Positions 10,775 to 63,920 are shown, numbered from the stretch's first letter. The stretch: DNA of 64,000 nt from Candidatus Staskawiczbacteria bacterium (GCA_041661545.1 JBAZUH010000001.1:211877-275876), one strand, 5' to 3'. The notes: a model not told the origin generated them from the letters alone. A program made the numbers and translations.

Positions 10775-10882
10775 TGTAGGAGAGCTACCTACTCTCGCGT
10801 TGCCACTACCATCGGCCTTGGAAGATTTCACTTCTGAGTTCGAAATGGGATCAGGTGGAGCACTTCCAGTATAGCTCCCTTA
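10775..10882 (-). rRNA. rrf: 5S rRNA
   Basis: The reverse complement contains CCCATTTCGAACTCAGAAGTGAAA and a GCCGATGGTAGTG core. The terminal helix is GTAAGGGAGC/GCTCTCCTAC. Confidence 0.9.
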
Positions 10883-10969
10883 CATTATTCACGATTTTTA
10901 CAAAATACCTAAAATCTGTATCTATTTAAACTTACGCTTTTTGTGAATCTTCGTATACTCAAATGCTAA

Positions 10970-14016
<3,047 letters not shown>

Positions 14017-19015: not shown

Positions 19016-19120
19016 AGCGAGGCAGTCAATTTTCAGCGTATTTCAGGACACAAAGTGCCTGACCAAGCCATTTAGACGCGAAGCGTATCAATGGCGTTAG
19101 CAGAAAATTGACTGCCGAGC
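19016..19120 (+). repeat. R element copy 1 (105-bp structured repeat with 14-bp terminal inverted repeats)
   Basis: ggcagtcaattttc...gaaaattgactgcc termini. It differs at 4 positions from the copy at 57024-57128. Confidence 0.85.
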
Positions 19121-19126
19121 GAAAAA

Positions 19127-22583: not shown

Positions 22584-23507
22584 TTACTTGCCCTTCTTCG
22601 GCGGACGGGGCTTCTTCCGTCGCGCGGTGAGCTTGGTGGCGGGCGCAGGCGCTTCGGGTGAAGCGGGCGCTTCGGCTACCAACTGCCATTCAGGACTCAG
22701 TCCATCCGGAGTGGGAACTTCAGCGACCGGAGGCTGCTCAGCCGACTCGGAAGTCGGCGGAGCGGGTTGCTCGGGAACAGGCTCGGTGGGCGGCTGAGCG
22801 GTGGGCTCGGGCGTAGGTGCTTGCGGTTCCCAACGAGAGGCTTCGGGAAAAGGCCCTGGGAAAAGACCTCCGCTTCCAAACAGAACTTCGAATGGGTCGG
22901 AACGGCGGGGTTCCCCAAAGAACTCCGGACGGAGACGACCACGCGCATCCATAAATCCGGGCGGATATGGGGATGGCGGTGGACCATACATGTCGCCAAA
23001 AAGGCTGTCGAGGCCCGCCAAAGCGCCGAGATTCATGGCGCCAAGGTCTATGACCGTGATCTCCGGCTCAATGGCCACGATGTGCCACCACTTCTTCACG
23101 GCCAGTGTCCGTTTCTCAAAACTTGCCATGGCGCACTGCTGGGGGAAGACTTCCTTGATCCCCCTCCACAAGAGACGGTTAAGGATAGTCAATTCCTCTT
23201 GCACGATGTCTAGTTCGGCGACCGATCGGCTCATGCGCTTTTTGATGTCGGCACCATTGGCCAGAACCATGGAAAATTCGTCCATCAAACGCATCTGGCA
23301 ATAGCCCCCTATGCTTTCCACTTCTCGCATGCAGATCGCTCTAAGCGTTGCCACCGCCTTCAAATGGTTCGGCAAAATGCCGATGAAGGTATCACCTTCC
23401 TGGATAAGCCCTTGGGGCTCTTCATACTCGGCGGCAGGCATGGTCTCAATCCTGTCAAGCAGAGCTCGCAGAAATCTCGTCGTTACGCTTCCCTTTGGTT
23501 GTTTCAT
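22584..23507 (-). CDS. hypothetical protein with a Pro/Ala-rich C-terminal tail (cassette 5)
   Basis: Start taken at MKQPKGS (ATG). One sample stretch is 45 of 60 nt GC. The C-terminus is low complexity (PEPTAQPPTEPVPEQPAPP) and ends in KKPRPPKKGK. Confidence 0.55.
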   Translation of the reverse strand: MKQPKGSVTTRFLRALLDRIETMPAAEYEEPQGLIQEGDTFIGILPNHLKAVATLRAICMREVESIGGYCQMRLMDEFSMVLANGADIKKRMSRSVAELDIVQEELTILNRLLWRGIKEVFPQQCAMASFEKRTLAVKKWWHIVAIEPEITVIDLGAMNLGALAGLDSLFGDMYGPPPSPYPPGFMDARGRLRPEFFGEPRRSDPFEVLFGSGGLFPGPFPEASRWEPQAPTPEPTAQPPTEPVPEQPAPPTSESAEQPPVAEVPTPDGLSPEWQLVAEAPASPEAPAPATKLTARRKKPRPPKKGK

Positions 23508-23598
23508 GGCTTCAATTCGGTTGTTCGTGGGGTTGGTTTGGTTTTTCAGTTTCCGCAAACGCGCGGAAACTAAAAGTCACCTTTTAGGTGCTACAAAT

Positions 23599-24547: not shown

Positions 24548-24556
24548 ATATTTTTT

Positions 24557-24609
24557 CAGGTTGCCCCTGCCTACGCCAAGGCTACGGCGAGGCAAGCATG
24601 GGCAACCTG
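24557..24609 (+). repeat. intercistronic GC-rich hairpin repeat, copy 1
   Basis: caggttgccc...gggcaacctg 10-bp outer stem enclosing tgcctacgcc-aaggctac-ggcgaggca. Confidence 0.85.
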
Positions 24610-24614
24610 ACACG

Positions 24615-24866
24615 TTAATTATTTTTTTTGATCCACCAATTTTTAAATAAAGAAATTGAAAATGTTGAAATAACAAATCCCAAGGTTGGCACAATGGCAT
24701 TTGCAAAAGGTTTTTCCAGTTTTGCAAAATAGAAAAAAATTACAATAACAATATAGGTTAAAACCGCAACCAAAATTTTCCGCGCCCAGCTTGTTTCCCA
24801 CGCCTTGTCTTGCTCAACTTTTTTGTTTCTTTCTTTTATTAAATTAATTTCTTTCTCAAAATCCAT
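24615..24866 (-). CDS. small two-TM membrane protein
   Basis: 83-aa ORF. Confidence 0.55.
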   Translation of the reverse strand: MDFEKEINLIKERNKKVEQDKAWETSWARKILVAVLTYIVIVIFFYFAKLEKPFANAIVPTLGFVISTFSISLFKNWWIKKNN

Positions 24867-24876
24867 AATTTTATTT

Positions 24877-24935
24877 CCTCAGGTTGCCCCTGCCTACGCC
24901 AAGGCTACGGCGAGGCAAGCATGGGCAACCTGAGG
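24877..24935 (+). repeat. intercistronic GC-rich hairpin repeat, copy 2
   Basis: cctcaggttgcccc...gggcaacctgagg. The interior is identical to copy 1. Confidence 0.85.
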
Positions 24936-24940
24936 TGTTT

Positions 24941-25237
24941 TTAGTTTTTAAATTGAATTACATTAAGACCTTTTTCTATTATTTCTTTTTCTTGGCCAAA
25001 ACTGTCAATTTTAAAATTTAAAACAAAATCAACCTTTTTCTCAATTTTTCTGCCAGTATATTGTTTTGTTTTAGGATTCCACTCTTCTAAAATTAACGTG
25101 TCGCCTTTTTGCACATCAAAATCTGCCAAGCGCAACTCAAACCTCTTTTCTCCTGATATGACCTTTTCAAAATACTCCGGCCAACATTTCCTTCGCCAGG
25201 CCGTAGCCTTGTGCGTAGGCTGGTTCTTTATTTCCAT
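24941..25237 (-). CDS. ASCH/DUF3850-like domain protein
   Basis: Start taken at MEIKNQ. CWPEYFEKVISGEKRFELRLADFDVQKGDTLILEEW is ASCH-like. Confidence 0.6.
   Translation of the reverse strand: MEIKNQPTHKATAWRRKCWPEYFEKVISGEKRFELRLADFDVQKGDTLILEEWNPKTKQYTGRKIEKKVDFVLNFKIDSFGQEKEIIEKGLNVIQFKN
25194..25223 (+). repeat. GC-rich repeat inside the ASCH CDS (encodes KATAW)
   Basis: cgccaggccgtagccttgtgcgtaggctgg. The core gccgtagcc-ttg-gcgtaggc is shared with the intercistronic repeats. Confidence 0.55.
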
Positions 25238-25246
25238 ATTATTTTT

Positions 25247-25299
25247 CAGGTTGCCCCCGCCTACGCCAAGGCTACGGCGAGGCAAGCATGGGCAACCTG
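25247..25299 (+). repeat. intercistronic GC-rich hairpin repeat, copy 3
   Basis: caggttgcccccgcctacgccaaggctacggcgaggcaagcatgggcaacctg. Confidence 0.85.
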
Positions 25300-25326
25300 G
25301 CGAATTTTTATATATTGTTGAATTTT

Positions 25327-31573: not shown

Positions 31574-31647
31574 ATTATTATATGTTAATTATATTATATA
31601 TTTTTACTCTACGCCTAAAAATTAAATTTGGCAAGTAATGTCTATTT

Positions 31648-31700
31648 ATCCCTCAAAAATGGTAGCACTTTTCGTGTCGAAAAGCGCTATTTTTGGGGAT
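31648..31700 (+). repeat. E element copy 1 (53 nt)
   Basis: atccctcaaaaatggtagcacttttcgtgtcgaaaagcgctatttttggggat, 8 nt from terminator D1. Confidence 0.8.
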
Positions 31701-31708
31701 TTTCGTTT

Positions 31709-31746
31709 AAAAAAAGAGCCCAAGGTTGCAGGTGCAACAAGGGGCA
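31709..31746 (-). terminator. terminator D1 (38-bp unit identical to D2)
   Basis: The minus strand reads tgccccttgttgcacctgcaaccttgggctcttttttt, starting 8 nt after the rSAM stop. Confidence 0.75.
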
Positions 31747-31754
31747 CAGAAATA

Positions 31755-33128
31755 TTATATTTGTTTATAAACGTCCCAAATTAACCAATTAAGCACTCCC
31801 AGCGAGTGTTTGCAAAACTTATCGTCAATAGCCCAAATTGTTCCATGCTTAAGAAATGCACTGTAGGCACACCCCCCTCCGCATAAACCAAGTGATGGAC
31901 AATTGAAGCATTGAGGCATTGTAAGCGGGGACCGCCTGCCCCATTCTTGAATTAGAAGATGGTCTGAAAAAATAAAATCTTTAGAAACTTTTCCAAAAAA
32001 GGAATTGCCGCAGCCTACTCCTTCGTGGCAAATGCCCAAAGACCCGTTTGGCGAGATAGCAAGTTGTGCGCCAGTAGCACGACAATCAAAAGGGTGAAGA
32101 ACGCCCTTGCCAATTGCTCTAACTTTGCGCATTATTCTATCTTCGTATAGTCCAATTTCTCGTGCTTTTTCAAAATATTCTAACATTCGCGTTGTAGCAT
32201 GTTCGGTGTAAGAAGCATCAACCATGCGCTCTGCGGTATCTAGCATTAAGTTAAAGTTAACCGTCTGAAATTGATATTGCTGGTGCAAAGTAAGCAGTTC
32301 GTCTAGCTTATCAACGTTGTGCTCGTCAATTGTTGCCGAGATGTTGATGTCTTTACGACCCGCACAATGCAAAAGCTCAATTCCTCTAGTTATGTCGCAG
32401 AAAGTTCCCTTTCCGCCACAATAAACCCTTTTCTGATCGTTAGTTTCTTGAAGTCCATCAAGCGAAACGCAGATTGTGATTTCTGGATGTTGCGCTAAAT
32501 AGCCAGCAATTTCTTCTGTGATCTTTGTTCCGTTGGTAATAAGCAATAAACCGATTTTGAACTCGGCCAGCTCCTTGCCATAATTGTCGTGGATGTATCC
32601 GACGATTTGTTTTATTAACGGGAAAGCAAGCAAGGGCTCACCACCGTAAAAAACGATCGTCTTGTGAAACTTTGTTGGCTTGATATTGGCGAAATACATG
32701 TCAACAGCCTCTTTTGCTATATCCCAGGTCATCGCCTTACTGCCTTTGCATTGTTCTGGCATGTTGCCGTTTATCATGCAATAATGGCACGCCAGATTAC
32801 ACATATCCGTAAGTAGTATAAAAATTGTCTCAAGCGTTGGCTGATAAACATACGTTTTTTGTTTTTCACGCAAAACGCAGTCATCGTCATATTCAACAGG
32901 TACAACCAATTGTTGCTCAATTAATTCAGCAACGATATCATCGACATCATCACCAAACTGACGTAAGTGTTCAAGTGTTGTACCTAATCGCAACTCATTT
33001 AGCAAATCAGCATAGCGCTCCTCTAAAAATAGAAGCGACAAACATAGCGAGTGAAAAACTGCATACGCACCATTTTTTTGTATTACGTGCGTCCATTTAG
33101 ATAATCGAATTGCCTTGTTATCATTCAT
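31755..33128 (-). CDS. radical SAM/SPASM peptide maturase with an N-terminal RRE (PqqD-like) domain
   Basis: 457-aa ORF with the CNLACHYC (CxxxCxxC) cluster and a C-terminal SPASM Cys pattern (CFNCPSLGLCGGGCAYS...CKH). The N-terminal 90 aa or so look like a peptide-recognition element. Confidence 0.8.
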   Translation of the reverse strand: MNDNKAIRLSKWTHVIQKNGAYAVFHSLCLSLLFLEERYADLLNELRLGTTLEHLRQFGDDVDDIVAELIEQQLVVPVEYDDDCVLREKQKTYVYQPTLETIFILLTDMCNLACHYCMINGNMPEQCKGSKAMTWDIAKEAVDMYFANIKPTKFHKTIVFYGGEPLLAFPLIKQIVGYIHDNYGKELAEFKIGLLLITNGTKITEEIAGYLAQHPEITICVSLDGLQETNDQKRVYCGGKGTFCDITRGIELLHCAGRKDINISATIDEHNVDKLDELLTLHQQYQFQTVNFNLMLDTAERMVDASYTEHATTRMLEYFEKAREIGLYEDRIMRKVRAIGKGVLHPFDCRATGAQLAISPNGSLGICHEGVGCGNSFFGKVSKDFIFSDHLLIQEWGRRSPLTMPQCFNCPSLGLCGGGCAYSAFLKHGTIWAIDDKFCKHSLGVLNWLIWDVYKQI

Positions 33129-33231: not shown

Positions 33232-33333
33232 TTAGTGGCACGAACACCCGCAGGCGCAATTCTGCGCCAACAGCACCGAGGTGCTGATGTTTCCGGCAAC
33301 ACGATCCAAGTGATGTTTAGTTACCTTCTTCAT
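33232..33333 (-). CDS. 33-aa Cys-rich RiPP precursor candidate (not in ORF track)
   Basis: Hand translation gives MKKVTKHHLDRVAGNISTSVLLAQNCACGCSCH*. A GAAAGGAG Shine-Dalgarno lies 5 nt upstream of the ATG, and the ORF sits directly upstream of the rSAM gene. Confidence 0.65.
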   Translation of the reverse strand: MKKVTKHHLDRVAGNISTSVLLAQNCACGCSCH

Positions 33334-33466
33334 CGCTACTCCTTTCTAACCTATTGTCTTTTGTTGGTTTTTTGACTGAGAATCCGCGCGGACACTCAAT
33401 TAACAACATGATCCAAAAACTAACTTGGACAACTAGGATTTTGCATTGATTTCAAAGAGCAATTTA

Positions 33467-33509: not shown

Positions 33510-33547
33510 AAAAAAAGAGCCCAAGGTTGCAGGTGCAACAAGGGGCA
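33510..33547 (-). terminator. terminator D2 (identical to D1)
   Basis: Same 38-bp sequence as 31709-31746, starting 8 nt after the stop of the small TM gene. Confidence 0.75.
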
Positions 33548-34048: not shown

Positions 34049-34258
34049 TTATTCCGAGGGAAGGAGGGTGACGACTACCTGGTCATTATCGAAAGTAACC
34101 TCCGTTTCCATATCGGCCCTTCTGCCGTCTATGGTCAATTCACAACGGTCGGCGATTTCTTCCAGGTGAGCTACCTTGATTATCGATCCAGCCCTTACAA
34201 TGCCATATATGGTTACTGGCGTTGTACCTCTCGGCGACACAACTTGAATTTGTTTCAT
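34049..34258 (-). CDS. small beta-grasp-like protein, paralog 1
   Basis: Start taken at MKQIQVVSPRG (69 aa). The C-terminus is LTIDGRRADMETEVTFDNDQVVVTLLPSE. An AAAGGA motif lies 7 nt upstream of the start. Confidence 0.5.
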   Translation of the reverse strand: MKQIQVVSPRGTTPVTIYGIVRAGSIIKVAHLEEIADRCELTIDGRRADMETEVTFDNDQVVVTLLPSE

Positions 34259-34807: not shown

Positions 34808-34881
34808 TGGTGGACCCGGGGAGAATCGAACTCCCAGCTTCTCGTTGCAAACGAGATGTGTTGCCACTATACCACGGGCCC
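34808..34881 (-). tRNA. tRNA-Ala (UGC), CCA encoded
   Basis: GGGCCCG acceptor stem with G3:U70, anticodon loop TTTGCAA and T-loop TTCGATT. Confidence 0.9.
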
Positions 34882-35484: not shown

Positions 35485-35555
35485 AGCGCCTAATTGGATT
35501 TGAACCAATGACATACGCTACGCAGAGCGATGCTCTACCACTGAGCTACAGGCGC
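35485..35555 (-). tRNA. tRNA with an atypical anticodon arm (isotype unresolved; reads GCG/Arg under the C32-U33 rule)
   Basis: Acceptor, D and T arms are good (GCGCCTG...TAGGCGC, GCTCAGTGGTAGAGC, ATTGGTTCAAATCCAAT). By hand the anticodon stem TCGCT/AGCGT encloses only 6 nt (CTGCGT). Confidence 0.55.
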
Positions 35556-35703: not shown

Positions 35704-35750
35704 CCGCCTAAAAAATTATTTCTAAATTATAAAAATAATTTTTTAGGCGG
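35704..35750 (-). terminator. long AT-rich perfect hairpin downstream of the 16S processing stem
   Basis: ccgcctaaaaaattattt...aaataattttttaggcgg. Confidence 0.4.
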
Positions 35751-36067
35751 TTGTTTGTAATAAGTAAAATTAGTGCTTTAAAGTTGTTTCGAATAAGAAG
35801 AATTTCTAGCGACTCTTCTCAAAACGCTTTTAGTTGAAAATCAGTGCGATTCGACATGCTCATCGAACTGAGCCAATCGAACCGTGCTGATAATTCTAAA
35901 GTCGACTACCTAAATACTATTCTTGCGAATAATATTTTTAAAAAAATGATCCACGACCAGCTTCCGCTAGCCGTGCCTTGTTACGACTTAGCCCCTCTTA
36001 CTGAATCTAGCTTAGGCCCTCTTGCGAGGAACTTCGGCTATCCCCAGCTCGCTTGGCTTGACGGGCG

Positions 36068-36912
36068 ATTATCCTCTAGAAACCTAGAGTTGATGTTCCC
36101 ACCGTACGAGCGGATTTCCCGCATACGGCGAGCTCTAATGCATTTTTTGTTTAATAAGATATAATCTTTTTAAACCAGAACTTGTCAAATGTTCTTTTTT
36201 CTTAATCCTTTTCATTATTTCGCAAAAAATTTTAAAATCGTATGCTTTTGATTTTAAATTTAATTTATTGCGCTTAAAAAATGGAATAATAGTTTCTTCT
36301 AAATCATTTCTATTTGTTACTTCGTATCGGTAACAATTTTGATGGTTTAGCCGTGTATCTTTTTGAAAATACACGTTTCCGCATTCAAAATATTTTTTCA
36401 AATCATATAAAATATCTTTATCTTTTTCTATGAGTTTGATATAAAATCTTGGTTCGGCTTTAACTCTTCTTTCATTTTCTAATTTTTTTGCCGGATTTTT
36501 AATATAAACAGTGAAGCTTCCTTCACCATCTATTAATCCAACAATATAATTAGGATTAAGTGACTTGTTAGAGAGATTCCTTGGCATAATATACTATATT
36601 ATGTTTAATATGAATCAGCTGACTTCTGACGCAGCGTTAGTAGTTTCATTATACTACGTCAGATCTCCCCGGGTCAATATATTTTCTTTTCCTGACATCC
36701 TTAGCTAGGCGTTGTGGTATGTTCTTCACTATGCTCACCGCCGATCATAGCTCGAACGCCTATTTTTATGCTAGGGCTACCATTTGTCGCAAAACCCTCT
36801 GGCGTCTACCTCGCGGTAGTTCGCCTGTTTGTTGACTACTCTCTGTTGAGTCTTAACAACAGAGGAAAAGATTTTAACTTTTTAGAAAATATACCTGCCG
36901 GGCGCGTTTATT
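36068..36912 (-). mobile_element. intron/intervening sequence in 16S rRNA at about E. coli position 1399/1400
   Basis: Exon 1 ends ...GAATACGTTCCTGAGTCTTGTACTCAC and exon 2 resumes CGCCCGTCAAGCC. The insertion splits the universal 1392-1406 block and carries a homing-endonuclease ORF. Confidence 0.85.
36135..36587 (-). CDS. LAGLIDADG homing endonuclease (single-motif type)
   Basis: 150-aa ORF inside the 16S intron. YIVGLIDGEGSF is the LAGLIDADG motif. Confidence 0.85.
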   Translation of the reverse strand: MPRNLSNKSLNPNYIVGLIDGEGSFTVYIKNPAKKLENERRVKAEPRFYIKLIEKDKDILYDLKKYFECGNVYFQKDTRLNHQNCYRYEVTNRNDLEETIIPFFKRNKLNLKSKAYDFKIFCEIMKRIKKKEHLTSSGLKRLYLIKQKMH

Positions 36913-37381
36913 GTGAGTACAAGACTCAGGAACGTATTCATCGCCACGTAGCTGATTGGCGATTACTAGCGATTCCAGCTTCATGAGGGCGAGTTTCAGC
37001 CCTCAATCCGAACTGAGATAGGTTTTGGTGCGATTAATCTCCGCCTTACGGCATCGAAGCGCATTGTACCTACCATTGTACCACGTGTGCGGCCCAGGTC
37101 ATCAAAGGGCCATGCTGATTTGGCGTCATCCTCGCCTTCCTCCCAATTATCTCGGGCAGTCCCCCGTGACATTTAAAACACAGGGCAAGGGTTGCGTTCG
37201 TTACCCGAATTAACGGTACGTCTCAAGACACGAACTGACGACAACCATGCAGCACCTGTCTGCACGTCTTGCGAGGGCTCTACTTTCATAAAGCTTTCGT
37301 GCAGATTTCCAGACCTGGTAAGGTTCTTCGCTTGTTGTCGAATTAAGCCACATGGTCCACCGCTTGTGTGAGTCCCCGTCT

Positions 37382-37413
<32 letters not shown>

Positions 37414-38530
37414 TCCCAGGCGGGATACTTAACGCGTTAGCTTCGCCACATGAAGGGTCGACACTTCATATAGCCAGTATCCATCGTTTACAGCGTGGAC
37501 TACAAGGGTATCTAATCCTTTTTGCTCCCCACGCTTTCGTTCCTCAGTGTCAGGATTGTCCTAGTGAACTGCCTTCGCTTTTGGTGTTCCCGACAATATC
37601 AACGGATTTCACCCCTACTCTGTCGGTTCCGTTCACCCCTAACATCCTCTAGTTTAGCAGTATTGAAAGCATCTCAAAGGTTAAGCCGATGAGTTTTAAC
37701 TTTCAACTTACTATACCACCTACGAACCCTTTACGCCCAATAAATCCGGGTAACGCTCGAGGATTCTGTATTACCGCTCCTGCTGGCACAGAATTAGGAT
37801 CCCCTTATTCATATGGTACTGTCTGGCTTGCGCCTTCCTCCCATATAAAAGAACTTTACACCCCTAAGGGCTTCATCATTCACGTAACGTCGCTCCGTCA
37901 GGCTTTCGCCCATTGCGGAAGATTCTCGACTGCAGCCTCCCGTAGGAGTATGGCCCGTGTCGCAGTGCCATTCTTGGGGGTCGCGCTCTCACGCCCCCTA
38001 CCCGTCATAGACTTGGTGAGCTATTACCTCGCCAACAATCTGATAGGCCGTAGGCCATTCCCAAATCGGCTTGCGCCTTTACCCTTGCGGGATTATGGAG
38101 AATTACCCCGTCTTTCGACGAGCTGTGCTCCAATTTGGGGTATGTACCCACGTGTTACTAAGCCGTTCGCCGGTTGCTATTGCTAGCCCCCTTGACTTGC
38201 ATGCCGGTATCCACGTTACCAGCGTTCACCCTGAGCTAGGATCAAACTCTCAAATAAAACATTTGATGTTTGAATTTCTAGTTATAGAATAAACTACTAA
38301 TGTGTGTCCCGCCTTCACTTAAGTGAAGGCGTGGACTAATTCGAAACAACTTTAAAAAACTAATTTTTGATTAAACTTTAATTTAATCAAACCTTTTGGT
38401 TGTTTACTATTTACTTATTTGCTGATTTTAAAAATGGTTTTAAAATCATGCTCATTATTTTCCTTTCCAAAACTTTTTTTTCAAAAATTGTTGGTAGGTT
38501 TATTTTTCAATTTTCTTTCCGTTCTGAATT

Positions 38531-40965: not shown

Positions 40966-41421
40966 TCAGCAATAGTGCTGACCTTCAAGAATGCGATACC
41001 CCCGACCCTCCTCAAAACGGACCGCCGCCAGCATTCTCTTTGCGTAAAGAGCAAACTCCTCATCACACAGTTCACCTGAATTATGCAATTGCCGGTAATG
41101 GTTCTTCGCCGCACCATCGTCGGCAGCAAGAAATCTACGAATTTTCTGTATCTGTTTTCCTCCTTCGCGCTGCCAGATGAAAAGTATATACCAATGTGGC
41201 CTTTGATCCACGCGTTCACATCTTAGCTTTGCGCGTTTATAGATATAACGCTTGATTATTTTATTGTTTCGCTTTAAAGTCGCGTGCTTTGGCTTCTTTT
41301 GCGAGATATAAAGTTTGAACAGATTCCTCGCTGCCCTATCTGACGAGCATTGAATCGTATGATAAAAAGAACAGCCATCGCGACGGCTACGATGTATACC
41401 ACTTATAATGTAGTGTTTCAT
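40966..41421 (-). CDS. two-domain small basic protein (type1-type2 fusion, cassette 8)
   Basis: 151-aa ORF. The N-terminal half is paralogous to 41455..41712 and the C-terminal half to 41943..42185 (HWYxLFxW...FLAxxDGAAK...FALYAxR...EGRGY...C). Confidence 0.55.
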   Translation of the reverse strand: MKHYIISGIHRSRRDGCSFYHTIQCSSDRAARNLFKLYISQKKPKHATLKRNNKIIKRYIYKRAKLRCERVDQRPHWYILFIWQREGGKQIQKIRRFLAADDGAAKNHYRQLHNSGELCDEEFALYAKRMLAAVRFEEGRGYRILEGQHYC

Positions 41422-41454
41422 AATAATTACCCTCTCTTTAGAATTGCAAGCGCC

Positions 41455-41712
41455 CTAAAGGGGGACACAACTCGCCATACTTCTTATCTCAGCATCTTCT
41501 TCTCGTCGGCGTTGTCTTTCTTTTCTGCTGACGTAATTCCTAACTCTCCTATCATCTCGCCATGCCGTAACAAACGCCGGCCTATCAAGGCGGATGAAAG
41601 ATCTCAAGTATCTCAACGCTAATTCATCGGATTTAAATTCAATTTCATCGCAAATATCACAGTTGTTTTGATGGGCACCATGTCGGCCCCTTATCATGTA
41701 TTGGCGTTTCAT
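41455..41712 (-). CDS. small basic protein, type 1 (cassette 8)
   Basis: 85-aa ORF with AAGGAG 13 nt upstream. The N-terminus MKRQYMIRGRHG aligns with MKHYIISGIHR of the fusion protein. Confidence 0.5.
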   Translation of the reverse strand: MKRQYMIRGRHGAHQNNCDICDEIEFKSDELALRYLRSFIRLDRPAFVTAWRDDRRVRNYVSRKERQRRREEDAEIRSMASCVPL

Positions 41713-41787
41713 AATTGTTCTTCGCTCCTTGTTTTGTAAAGGTTCTGATTGATGTTTTGGGCAACTCTTATGAGCATTGCCGATTTA

Positions 41788-41816
41788 TTCTTACCACAAG
41801 CTATTTTCAAAGTCAA
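41788..41816 (-). promoter_or_regulatory. duplicated promoter unit, copy 1 (cassette 8)
   Basis: Minus strand TTGACT, 17 nt, TAAGAA. The surrounding ~35 nt are nearly identical to 42311-42350. Confidence 0.45.
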
Positions 41817-41942
41817 AAAGCTTAACTAACATATCTCTGTAAAGCTAGTTCACATTTCAAGCGATAGCGTAAAATATGAACCTATATATTTATGGGAGAT
41901 TTTGTAGAAAAAAAGAGACGCGAACTTTCGTAAGCGCCATAT

Positions 41943-42185
41943 TCAACAACCATAGACACCATCCCAGATGAGATACCCGCGCCCCTCCTTAAATTTGGTT
42001 ACTGGCAACCGTCTGCGTGCATAGAGAGCAAAATCCTGACCAGGCACTAAACCATTCTTCTGCAACCGCCGACAATAGCGTTTCGCTGCACCATCATTGA
42101 CGGCAAGAAATTTACGAATTATCTCCACCCGTTTTCTTTTAATCCAATGCCAGGTGAACAGTGCATACCAGTGTCTTCTTTTCAT
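41943..42185 (-). CDS. small basic protein, type 2 (cassette 8)
   Basis: Start taken at MKRRHWYALFTW (80 aa). Confidence 0.5.
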   Translation of the reverse strand: MKRRHWYALFTWHWIKRKRVEIIRKFLAVNDGAAKRYCRRLQKNGLVPGQDFALYARRRLPVTKFKEGRGYLIWDGVYGC

Positions 42186-42316
42186 TTTTGTAAAGGTTCT
42201 GGTTGCAACTCCCGCCCCCGGCTCTAACGGCATTGCAAGACTGACCTCACACCTTAGTTCCACCATTTTTCAATGGTTATTGGTGAGAGGGATACTCTCA
42301 CGAGAGTTGCAATTTA

Positions 42317-42345
42317 TTATTACCACAAGCTATTTTCAAAGTCAA
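42317..42345 (-). promoter_or_regulatory. duplicated promoter unit, copy 2 (cassette 8)
   Basis: Minus strand TTGACT, 17 nt, TAATAA. Confidence 0.45.
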
Positions 42346-42369
42346 AAAAATATGTTATTATTTTTGAAT

Positions 42370-43224
42370 ATGAACGATCAAATAGATTATTCTAAATTTA
42401 CTGCAGAAGACTGGAAAAACTACAAAGGTGAAGAAATTGAAAGCCCTTCGGCAAACTCGGGGCGACAATCTGCAATAATTGAAATACGTGCTGGCCAAGG
42501 CGGAGACGAGGCTGGTCTTTTTGGACGCGATTTATATAGAATGTATTCAAGATATGGGCAAACAAAAGGGTGGAAAGAAAGAATTTTAGACTCTAACAGC
42601 ACTTCTGTTGGTGGATATAAAGAAATGATTTTTGAATTGCAGGGTCCTGGCGCTTATGACGAGCTTCAAAATGAAGGTGGAGTTCACAGGGTTCAAAGAA
42701 TTCCAAAAACAGAAAAACAAGGCCGAGTTCACACTTCAACCGCCACTGTAGCTGTTTTATTAAAACCTAAAAAAACAGAAATAAATATAAACCCAGCAGA
42801 TTTGAGAATAGATACTTATCGTTCTTCGGGTGCCGGAGGACAATACGTTAATAAAACAGAATCTGCCATTAGAATAACACACATTCCAACAAATACAGTT
42901 GTTACCTGCCAAACAGAAAGAAACCAACAACAAAATAAAGAGCAGGCTATGTCGGTTTTAGCGGCAAGAATTTTACAAAAACAAGAAGAATCTGATTTAT
43001 CAAGTTTATCGGCAGAAAGACGAGAACAAATTGGCTGGGCCAAACGTTCTGAAAAAATAAGAACTTATAATTATCCTCAAAATAGAATTACAGACCATAG
43101 AATAAACAAATCTTGGCATAATTTAGAAAGTATAGTTGATGGAAATTTAGAACCTGTTATTAAAGCTTTTAACAAACCCCATCATTCAGAAGCCAACATT
43201 GAGCTCGAAAAAGTAGAAGAATAA
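42370..43224 (+). CDS. prfA: class I peptide chain release factor, RF1-type (PxT), N-terminally short
   Basis: Start taken at MNDQ (ATG 42352 is an alternative). RIPKTEKQGRVHTS carries the PKT tripeptide, and SSGAGGQYVNKTES is the GGQ motif. The tracked ORF's upstream part reads through the cassette-8 promoter. Confidence 0.8.
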   Translation: MNDQIDYSKFTAEDWKNYKGEEIESPSANSGRQSAIIEIRAGQGGDEAGLFGRDLYRMYSRYGQTKGWKERILDSNSTSVGGYKEMIFELQGPGAYDELQNEGGVHRVQRIPKTEKQGRVHTSTATVAVLLKPKKTEININPADLRIDTYRSSGAGGQYVNKTESAIRITHIPTNTVVTCQTERNQQQNKEQAMSVLAARILQKQEESDLSSLSAERREQIGWAKRSEKIRTYNYPQNRITDHRINKSWHNLESIVDGNLEPVIKAFNKPHHSEANIELEKVEE

Positions 43225-57023: not shown

Positions 57024-57128
57024 AGCGAGGCAGTTAATTTTCAGCGTATTTCAGGACACGAAGTGCCTGACTAAGCCGTTTAGACGCGAAGCGTATCAAT
57101 GGCGTTAGCAGAAAATTGACTGCCGAGC
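57024..57128 (+). repeat. R element copy 2
   Basis: About 96% identical to 19016-19120 and in the same orientation. It lies between eno and gpmA. Confidence 0.85.
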
Positions 57129-57152
57129 AAAAAAAATTTATTTGCCAAGCGT

Positions 57153-62990: not shown

Positions 62991-63040
62991 TATATTATAT
63001 GTTAACCGCTTACAAAATAAAATCAAGTCTTACCATATGC

Positions 63041-63093
63041 ATCCCTCAAAAATGGTAGCAATTTGTGTGTCACAAATCGCTATTTTTGGGGAT
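63041..63093 (+). repeat. E element copy 2 (53 nt)
   Basis: atccctcaaaaatggtagcaatttgtgtgtcacaaatcgctatttttggggat, 8 nt from the cassette-9 terminator. Confidence 0.8.
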
Positions 63094-63101
63094 TTTCATT
63101 T

Positions 63102-63129
63102 AAAAAAAAGCTACGATGTCACACGTAGC
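63102..63129 (-). terminator. terminator of cassette 9
   Basis: gctacg/cgtagc stem followed by a T8 run on the minus strand. Confidence 0.65.
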
Positions 63130-63169: not shown

Positions 63170-63883
63170 TCAAGCCAGAAGCTTGGGCCAGTTTTCACCT
63201 TTGGGTTCCAAGGCTTCAGAACCCTGCGGACAATATGGACAATCTTCAGGCTCCCAACTGTCCACCTGTTTGGCAATAAATGGTACGACTAAGCTTCCAT
63301 CGTTCGTCCTAAAATTGAGAACTGGGGGGCGATACACAAACACCCCAATCTGTCGAGCATAGCAGACACCATTATTTGTTGCCTTGTCAATTGCCACACG
63401 GCTAGCGATAGCACTATCAAAAGTGGTGATTAACTCTTCAACCTGCAAAAGCACCGCGCCTTCTGACAATGGCACGTCATGCTTAAACTTCATCTTTTTG
63501 CCTTTGGGATCCTCTGGATCCTTTTCCAACACAAGCGTTGGCACGCCAAGCAAACGACCAATATCACCGGTTAAGAGAATCGATGACTGTGGCGATCCGA
63601 AGACTGCATCAACGTGTGCTAATCCAGCTCGAAGGAGGCGCTTAACAATACAAGCGGCAATAATCTCGCGAAGATTGCCATGCATCAGCAAAGCCTTGCA
63701 TAGGAAAAATGCGTTACTGTGACGCCCGGAGTGAAGTTTCGCATGCGGTTTTATTGGGTCACCTGAGTAAACCCAACCTGCTTGCAAAAGTCCAAACCAC
63801 TCCAACACATTTTCCGGTGTCGGCAAAAATAACCCCCATTTCATCGAAAGGTTTTTCAGACCTTCTCTGGTTAATTCTTTCAT
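63170..63883 (-). CDS. phosphoribosyltransferase-like protein (type I PRTase fold, divergent) in cassette 9
   Basis: 237-aa GC-rich ORF. VLLQVEELITTFDSA resembles the PRPP-binding loop (hydrophobic strand, two acidic residues, then TTG-like). The C-terminus has CPYCP. Confidence 0.5.
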   Translation of the reverse strand: MKELTREGLKNLSMKWGLFLPTPENVLEWFGLLQAGWVYSGDPIKPHAKLHSGRHSNAFFLCKALLMHGNLREIIAACIVKRLLRAGLAHVDAVFGSPQSSILLTGDIGRLLGVPTLVLEKDPEDPKGKKMKFKHDVPLSEGAVLLQVEELITTFDSAIASRVAIDKATNNGVCYARQIGVFVYRPPVLNFRTNDGSLVVPFIAKQVDSWEPEDCPYCPQGSEALEPKGENWPKLLA

Positions 63884-63920
63884 GGCTTTTTCCTTTCTTT
63901 CTAGCGCAGGTTCTTTCTTG

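Follow-up and report, generated by a model that had tools for sequence, protein, structure and literature searches.

The DNA analysed here is a stretch of 64,000 nucleotides from the metagenome-assembled genome of a Candidatus Staskawiczbacteria bacterium (GCA_041661545.1, JBAZUH010000001.1:211877-275876; hereafter the window, with positions counted from its first letter). It carries a single copy of the 16S rRNA gene (rrs) on the minus strand (35947-38257), and this report is concerned with the 3′ tail of that 16S rRNA, where the anti-Shine-Dalgarno (anti-SD) sequence is missing, and with how the surrounding genes may initiate translation. The gene is split. Exon 1 (36913-38257, minus strand) covers the gene from its 5′ end up to the position matching Escherichia coli C1399 (...CUUGUACUCAC) and matches the Rfam SSU_rRNA_bacteria model with 1251.9 bits; its boundary was placed with the help of the conserved GYACACACCGCCCGU block. 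In the region of the decoding centre, after the equivalent of E. coli C1399 and before that of C1400, lies an intervening sequence of 845 nt (36068-36912, minus strand), delimited by reading the sequence and by weak group II intron signals, namely Rfam matches to group-II-D1D4-1 (36658-36577) and to domain V of Intron_gpII (36133-36093), which occur in the expected order. Its 5′ end is AAUAAACGCG..., unlike the usual GUGYG, and it encloses an open reading frame (ORF) of 150 amino acids for a LAGLIDADG homing endonuclease (36135-36587, minus strand; Pfam PF00961 LAGLIDADG_1, E = 2.3e-18). Exon 2 (35947-36067, minus strand), also read from the sequence, begins with CGCCCGUC... and continues through helix 44, AAGUCGUAACAAGG and helix 45 to GAUCA. 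The true 3′ exon of the 16S gene extends from 36067 to about 35940. The Rfam match ends at 36861, its last ~50 positions being forced into the intervening sequence, because of which its 3′ boundary is wrong by about 900 nt; this boundary is a forced-alignment artefact. The rRNA genes of the window are unlinked, the 16S gene lying about 21 kb from the 23S-5S genes (10776-14009) with protein genes and GC-rich islands in between; it has its own leader-trailer stem and terminator-like hairpin, and three tRNA genes follow.

Helix 45 (CACGGCUAGC-GGAA-GCUGGUCGUG, 35975-35952, minus strand) comes directly after ...AAGUCGUAACAAGG and was also detected, as a 10-bp stem, by a terminator scan. At the position that follows, the canonical bacterial 16S rRNA has GAUCACCUCCUUA. 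Here, the gene instead reads GAUCA (35951-35947), U7 (35946-35940), A5 (35939-35935) and UAUU, i.e., GAUCA-UUUUUUUAAAAAUAUU, and the place of the anti-SD is taken by a tail of A and U only (35931-35946, minus strand) that holds no CCUCC and is conserved in relatives. On the minus strand, CCUCC is absent from 35950 down to the tRNA-Ala at 34881; nine CCTCC occur on this strand across the window, the nearest to the tail being at 34067, within an ORF. An additional downstream exon providing a hidden CCUCC was ruled out in the same way, as none exists from GAUCA to the tRNAs, in the trailer or in the tRNA spacer. Folding the 16S leader together with the trailer (RNAcofold) yields a processing stem of 27 bp, in which leader positions 38368-38340 pair with 35797-35770, about 150 nt downstream of helix 45 and the U-run; a 20-bp hairpin with a U-rich run behind it, resembling a terminator, stands between this stem and tRNA-Lys (35704-35750, minus strand). 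These results agree with the first-pass annotation, made from the sequence, which had claimed that the 16S tail lacks CCUCC, that the trailer offers no replacement and that a processing stem is present in the trailer.

Helix 45 followed by GATCATTTTT (35940-35975, minus strand) was called terminator-like by the consensus scan and, with the 16S gene unlinked from the 23S gene here, one might suppose that helix 45 and GAUCA-U7 act as a weak intrinsic terminator that partly makes the rRNA end. However, stem and U-run are set apart by a 5-nt spacer, the leader-trailer stem 150 nt further downstream needs transcription to read through this point, and the tails of sister clades have no U-run, e.g., AAUUAAAC. 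Such a contribution of termination to the 3′ end is, in our view, distinctly unlikely.

The comparison with related 16S sequences, which the first-pass annotation had put forward as a check, was carried out by searching a single genome of each GTDB species for AAGTCGTAACAAGG-N22-28-GATCA with six A/T directly behind it, which returned at least 120 loci (named L plus a number below). At least 111 of them are non-eukaryotic loci with A/T-only tails, nearly all labelled Patescibacteria; the labels among the loci listed include Staskawicz-, Lipton-, Harrison- and Nealsonbacteria, Paceibacterota and Minisyncoccus archaeiphilus PMX.108. Among the 111 non-eukaryotic loci listed, CCTCC comes in no case within 60 nt of GATCA and in seven cases within 200 nt, which is at or below chance, while a GTCGA-like motif is found 14-51 nt past GATCA in most of them. 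The tails of the loci listed fall into families (GATCAATTAAAC/T, GATCA(A/T)TTATTT and GATCATTTTTTTAAAA), the replacement tails of the clade being GAUCA-U7-A5, GAUCAAUUAAAC and GAUCAUUUAUUU. The six closest 16S matches listed (blastn with exon 1: L039, 94.1%; L054, 93.8%; L110, 93.8%; L097, 91.4%; L058, 91.0%; L049, 89.6%) all end in GATCA-T7-A3-6, the tail type of the window. Several of the nearest 16S loci listed are labelled Staskawiczbacteria or Paceibacterota, and NCBI gives two proteins of the window the name Candidatus Staskawiczbacteria bacterium, which places it in the Parcubacteria; two of the top six carry the labels Omnitrophota or Dehalococcoidia, presumably through binning errors. 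The anti-SD-less loci among the 40 best-scoring 16S matches listed are each at least about 75% identical to the window. Aligning 13 tails revealed a preserved layout, U7-A3-6, a variable hairpin insert of 0-45 nt and then a GUAGUCGAC box (35901-35909, minus strand, in the 3′ trailer), which is conserved across Staskawiczbacteria-type loci and is likely to be a processing signal. Helix 45 is either identical in the relatives or changed by a compensatory G-C/C-G swap, as expected of a functional rRNA. With this tail kept in the nearest relatives listed and A/U-only tails across the clade, the loss of the anti-SD is old, extends over a deep clade and is no assembly artefact. A scan of metagenomes also returned 23 contigs that have the same helix 45 but the canonical GGATCACCTCCTTTCTA tail, their 16S being ~75% identical to that of the window.

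Eight or nine of the loci listed are eukaryotic 18S contaminants (GTAGGTGAACCTGCGGAAGGATCATTA). Such 18S 3′ ends (GTAGGTGAACCTGCGGAAGGATCATTA) stand on L020, L023, L040, L051, L057, L085, L101 and L111, filed as bacterial or archaeal; the genomes affected, likely by contamination, include Virgibacillus profundi, Streptomyces fumigatiscleroticus and metagenome-assembled genomes of Treponema, Acidimicrobiales and Methanobrevibacter.

These comparisons bear on the possibility that the tail is an artefact or that an anti-SD is hidden, through mis-assembly, a pseudogene, a further intervening sequence, or an aberrant copy standing beside a normal rrs. One intervening sequence in this gene did mislead Rfam, and the window covers 64 kb of the genome. 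Nevertheless, the same tail is found in independent assemblies of the closest relatives listed and A/U tails occur in at least 110 species genomes, no CCUCC lies between GAUCA and the tRNAs, helix 45 covaries, the mRNAs are free of SD sequences as expected of a real loss (see below), and the loss has been reported independently (PMC9297842, PMC10783764). An artefact or hidden anti-SD is hence already largely refuted, and we regard it as extremely unlikely.

We then looked at how the host genes begin, by scoring positions -22 to -3 of the ORF starts against ACCUCCUUA with a threshold of ΔG ≤ -4.5 kcal/mol. Five of 66 ORF starts in the window reach this threshold, including that of a questionable GTG ORF and a TTG wrongly called as the start of ftsZ. 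Among the 47 confident host starts, none or one does, compared to 15.8% of same-strand 20-mers outside the GC-rich islands (binomial p = 0.0003-0.003), a significant depletion of SD-like motifs. The same pipeline applied to E. coli as a control places 74% of starts at the threshold, with G peaking at 42-48% around -12 to -7. The genes named in the first-pass annotation as having no GGAG-like motif upstream (serS, lysS, rpsB, tsf, ychF, greA, ftsZ and mreC) are indeed without one; their identities were confirmed by NCBIfam and, for ftsZ, by Pfam. What the host leaders do have is A, which dominates from -16 to -2 and reaches 81% at -6 and -5, 64% at -3 and 62% at -13, with T at 62% at -1 and a G+C of 0-4% from -8 to -4. 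The start regions are also poorly structured: the GC content falls to 19% at host start codons, and 40-nt windows fold with a mean of -1.2 kcal/mol when centred on the start codon, exactly where predicted structure is lowest, versus -4 to -4.7 kcal/mol within genes. Internal SD-like pentamers are not avoided in the host genes (97 versus 107 ± 9.6 after synonymous-codon shuffling, z = -1.1), whereas they are avoided in a sample of E. coli genes (26 versus 48 ± 6.4, z = -3.4). The ORFs of the relatives, in crude gene sets, are without a peak of G upstream, whichever the tail family, and the 23 metagenome contigs that keep the anti-SD have 32% SD-like starts, compared to 8% in the window and 74% in E. 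coli, in small and noisy gene sets.

In summary, the absent anti-SD, the depletion of SD motifs, the A-rich and unstructured leaders and the internal motifs that are not avoided make SD-independent initiation in the host, as initially proposed, well supported. We consider it highly probable that this Staskawiczbacteria genome combines a 16S rRNA devoid of anti-SD with SD-independent initiation on A-rich leaders, and it is as part of this whole account that the A/U-only tail where CCUCC should be is judged a trait of the lineage and not an error. The mRNAs of the host have lost their SDs, and the 30S subunit would load on the unstructured, A-rich leader region, the start codon then being picked by the initiator tRNA and the initiation factors instead of by rRNA-mRNA pairing. 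This would be the structure-minimised, SD-independent route known from Bacteroidia and other lineages without an anti-SD. The compositional bias up to -16 and the tightly packed, co-directional genes may argue for leadered or internal starts rather than for leaderless mRNAs, whose 5′ UTRs would mostly be below about 8 nt. Several points weigh against this account: gene starts were assigned by a simple ORF rule and the gene sets of the relatives are noisy; the mature tail is predicted from the gene sequence, and the ribosome may keep only part of U7A5; the window covers 64 kb of a 738-kb contig, and a second rrs could lie elsewhere; and the scan demanded six A/T after GATCA and so gives no fraction of the clade without an anti-SD.

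A-rich leaders facing a U-rich tail raise the question of a substitute pairing, in which GAUCA-U7-A5 would serve as a new anti-SD. The U7-A3-6 tail is kept at 89-94% 16S identity among the closest matches listed, A strongly prevails in the host leaders from -16 to -2, and duplexes of the relatives' ORF starts (492 starts) with their own tail are slightly more stable than with swapped tails (-0.57 versus -0.47 ± 0.04 kcal/mol). Such energies are however negligible, at about -0.5 kcal/mol for own and swapped tails alike versus -5.7 kcal/mol for the E. coli SD:anti-SD, and the small gain with the own tail is expected from shared A/T composition. Moreover, the clades with the AAUUAAAC tail are equally enriched in A and show no complementary GUUUAAUU signal, the A peak at -6/-5 is nearer to the start than the SD geometry, and the same low-complexity AAAA matches were met and disregarded by Amin et al. 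(PMC6107228). With no tail-specific complementary motif in other tail families, the U-rich tail as a substitute anti-SD is unsupported and very unlikely.

The host part of this account has already been published, and the present case is another member of that class. In Tsurumaki et al. (2022, RNA 28:1041; PMC9297842), the anti-SD motif, detected in 48% of Parcubacteria, is missing in a subgroup of them that overlaps the group lacking uL1, and the SD helix is probably unformed. That subgroup and the window are alike in superphylum and in the CCUCCU missing from the 16S 3′ end; in contrast to the present case, the excerpts of that paper contain no mention of Staskawiczbacteria, of replacement tails or of mRNA leaders, and they tie the loss of the anti-SD to the absence of uL1, whose rplA locus lies outside the 64-kb window here (PMC9297842). 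A 2024 PLoS One survey (PMC10783764) counts the Parcubacteria groups Campbellbacteria and Wolfebacteria, along with SR1 and Peribacter, among the organisms with neither CCUCC nor SD (its class iv), and Amin et al. (2018; PMC6107228) found SDs to be generally missing where the anti-SD is. The class iv organisms resemble the window in having no CCUCC, no SD enrichment and a variant common to close relatives, while both surveys include few candidate-phyla genomes, and this lineage and tail type are not listed in the excerpted parts of their text (PMC10783764, PMC6107228). In Bacteroidia, studied in Flavobacterium johnsoniae, mRNAs are also SD-less, and low structure together with upstream "Kozak-like" nucleotides tunes initiation; these bacteria keep an anti-SD that is hidden by bS21, bS18 and bS6 and used for a few genes such as rpsU and prfB (PMC6847099, PMC7797042). 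The SD-less, low-structure and A-rich start regions shared with the window look like the same solution. However, the retained and sequestered anti-SD that defines the SD-blind ribosome of Bacteroidia is absent from the window, which leaves no residual regulation possible. Eukaryotic 18S rRNA ends in ...GUAGGUGAACCUGCGGAAGGAUCAUUA, with GGAUCA and then A/U after helix 45, and no CCUCC. The likeness to the tail is one of sequence only, since the gene of the window, helix 45 included, is otherwise of bacterial type.

Few Bacteria have lost the anti-SD, and where this has happened the way of finding start codons has changed altogether. The phenomenon itself being published, the value of the present case lies in confirmation and in added detail, i.e., the tail families, the layout of U7-A3-6, hairpin and GUAGUCGAC box, the figures on leaders, folding and internal motifs, and the behaviour of a peptide cassette described below. 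It also has a practical side: 16S annotators and gene callers mis-handle such genomes, and start prediction based on SDs will fail. The only cultured member retrieved is L014, Minisyncoccus archaeiphilus PMX.108 (NZ_AP038758.1), whose anti-SD-less tail is GAUCAUUUAUUU (GATCATTTATTTATATTTTGAAAGTGTCGG) and which could serve for experiments on initiation that naturally does without an anti-SD.

Several genes in GC-rich cassettes of the window had been described as carrying strong SDs, and the most distinct case is a cassette for a ribosomally synthesised and post-translationally modified peptide (RiPP). It contains a precursor ORF (33333-33232, MKKVTKHHLDRVAGNISTSVLLAQNCACGCSCH; 33232-33346 with its SD-like box, minus strand), preceded at 5 nt from the ATG by the box GAAAGGAG (33346-33339), and a radical SAM maturase (31755-33128, minus strand; Pfam Radical_SAM, E = 3.4e-16), which has no SD here (aagaaagaaatagaatcATG). 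The cassette is bounded by two copies of a perfect (100%) 38-nt direct repeat (31709-31746 downstream and 33510-33547 upstream). The radical SAM gene is GC-richer than the host, and numerous homologues of its protein are 60-79% identical, all those with a name belonging to Patescibacteria. We compared seven homologous cassettes with that of the window just upstream of the precursor ATG. An AAAGGAG(G) box 5-7 nt from the ATG is present in five of the eight cassettes (window, AGAAAGGAGtagcgATG; L122, AGAAAGGAGGaaagccATG; L123, AAGAAAGGAGGatggcATG; L126, GGGAAGGAGtaaagtcATG; L128, AAGAAAGGAGGTGcaaaATG), is weak in L127 (GAAGGA) and is lacking in L124 and L125; the upstream flanks of the eight are otherwise unalignable. 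In homologous cassettes of other Patescibacteria the precursor is thus preceded by strong AAAGGAGG boxes; L122 and L123 have an SD at the radical SAM gene as well, unlike the window. The housekeeping neighbours on the L125-L128 contigs have no SDs.

The most likely reading is that the AAAGGAG box was inherited within a cassette family circulating among Patescibacteria and would here be a relic without a pairing partner, which fits a RiPP cassette family that probably took shape mostly in SD-using hosts, with a recent insertion at this position. A pure relic explains only incompletely why the box is kept in five of eight cassettes despite diverged flanks, some of them in SD-less hosts. It could instead be that the AAAGGAG(G) before the RiPP precursor, and perhaps before other cassette genes, is selected in hosts that have no anti-SD, which we hold to be quite improbable; a role of the box that needs no pairing with rRNA, such as that of a purine-rich enhancer free of structure or of a protein-binding or regulatory site, is equally so. 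Speaking for a functional purine box are its constant distance of 5-7 nt from the ATG in the window, L122, L123, L126 and L128 with unalignable flanks, the SD-less housekeeping genes on the L125-L128 contigs and the unstructured start region of the precursor. On the other hand, the other hosts are seen without their 16S, about half of the Parcubacteria keep the anti-SD (PMC9297842), and some contigs combine this helix 45 with a canonical tail. The box is also absent or weak in L124, L125 and L127, the copy in the window is one G shorter than the strongest copies, like decay, and the perfect 38-nt direct repeats argue for a recent insertion. Taken more broadly, selection of the box in anti-SD-less Parcubacteria as a pairing-free initiation or regulatory element, or else a continuing flow of cassettes from anti-SD-bearing lineages, is unlikely, and the U7A5 tail as a replacement anti-SD for A-tract leaders is weaker still.

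For the remaining GC-rich cassettes, SD-like motifs have to be set against island composition. In the islands (at least 42% GC), 20.2% of coding-strand 20-mers are SD-like, and the 4-5 SD-like starts among 17-20 island ORFs are not above this background (p = 0.25-0.46). Host and island starts do differ (Fisher p = 0.0013), because the host leaders are purged of G and not because the cassettes are enriched. Most SD-like motifs of the islands are hence a chance product of island composition. The motifs reported by the first-pass annotation (GAAAGGAG, AAGGAG, GAGAGGG and AAAGGA) are present where it placed them, but calling them strong overstates two of them, and another has a long spacer. In the GC-rich group of ORFs termed cassette 8, an ORF of 151 amino acids with 44% GC (40966-41436 including its box, minus strand) has GAGAGGG (41436-41430) 9 nt before its ATG (ΔG -8.3 kcal/mol), and one of 85 amino acids with 44% GC (41455-41730, minus strand) has AAGGAG (41730-41725) with a long, 12-nt spacer (ΔG -7.7 kcal/mol). 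AAAGGA precedes an ATG near 34257 and is weak, being AAAGGA only; likewise weak is the AAAGGA (63896-63891, ΔG -5.6 kcal/mol) of a phosphoribosyltransferase-like ORF with 47% GC (63170-63896, minus strand), which has a sub-threshold match to pyrE_Therm. The 85-amino-acid ORF resembles the N-terminal half of the 151-amino-acid one, and the cassette-8 ORFs (40966-41421, 41455-41712 and 41943-42266) are paralogous modules and therefore real genes. Among 5.8 billion proteins, the 151-amino-acid ORF matches only itself, and Pfam returned nothing for five cassette ORFs. As an ORFan of this genome only, the cassette-8 family allows no donor to be named. Hence, the proposal of a recent import from SD-using, GC-richer donors stands for the RiPP cassette (its 38-nt repeats, GC-rich radical SAM gene and SD boxes in homologues) and does not for the other cassette ORFs, with motifs at island background and an ORFan family in cassette 8. 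As for whether the cassette genes can be translated at all, the start windows of those bearing an SD fold at -0.6 to -1.6 kcal/mol versus a host mean of -1.2 kcal/mol; folding as weakly as the host's own, they should be served by its SD-independent route, and translation of the cassette genes without SD pairing is plausible.

A second example of SD-bearing mobile genes in an SD-lacking host context is found on the L128 contig, where an ORF of 177 amino acids beside a phage-type integrase (L128, 614-1147) has a very strong SD (AAAAGGAGGTGggagATG) and the housekeeping genes of the contig have none. In the window, a 73-nt element (88% identity) stands just downstream of both the RiPP cassette and the phosphoribosyltransferase-like ORF (31643-31715 and 63036-63108), and a 111-nt repeat pair is 95% identical (19016-19126 and 57024-57134); these 73-nt and 111-nt repeats may be cassette boundaries or recombination sites. 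Close to cassette 8, a 37-nt direct repeat (97%; 41783-41819 and 42312-42348) brackets a 529-bp GC-rich insert, whose ORF of 107 amino acids is paralogous to the C-terminal half of the ORF at 40966-41421. The insert is just upstream of an RF1-like release factor gene (42352-43224, plus strand), one of the few plus-strand genes, from which about the first 100 residues of the family profile are missing. The frameshift of prfB was considered as a test of anti-SD use and set aside: this release factor is prfA-like (PKT motif; NCBIfam prfA) rather than prfB and hence offers no frameshift site for inspection.

Two further regions are unusual in composition or structure. At 22584-23558 (minus strand) there is an ORF of 324 amino acids with 58% GC, a TTG start, a Pro/Ala-rich C-terminus and no Pfam match; its start region is very structured (-18.3 kcal/mol), pointing to foreign DNA or to an ORF that is not a gene as called. 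A 78-nt GC-rich palindromic element occurs three times (83-88% identity) at 24549-25316, with spacings of 323 and 367 nt, in a region that otherwise has 33% GC. Finally, downstream of the 16S gene, a tRNA at 35485-35555 (minus strand, 58 bits) has a 6-nt anticodon loop, CUGCGU, and, although its score is good, is reported by ARAGORN as "tRNA-???" with the anticodon (gc). An unusual tRNA, a pseudogene or a 1-nt assembly error could each account for this.

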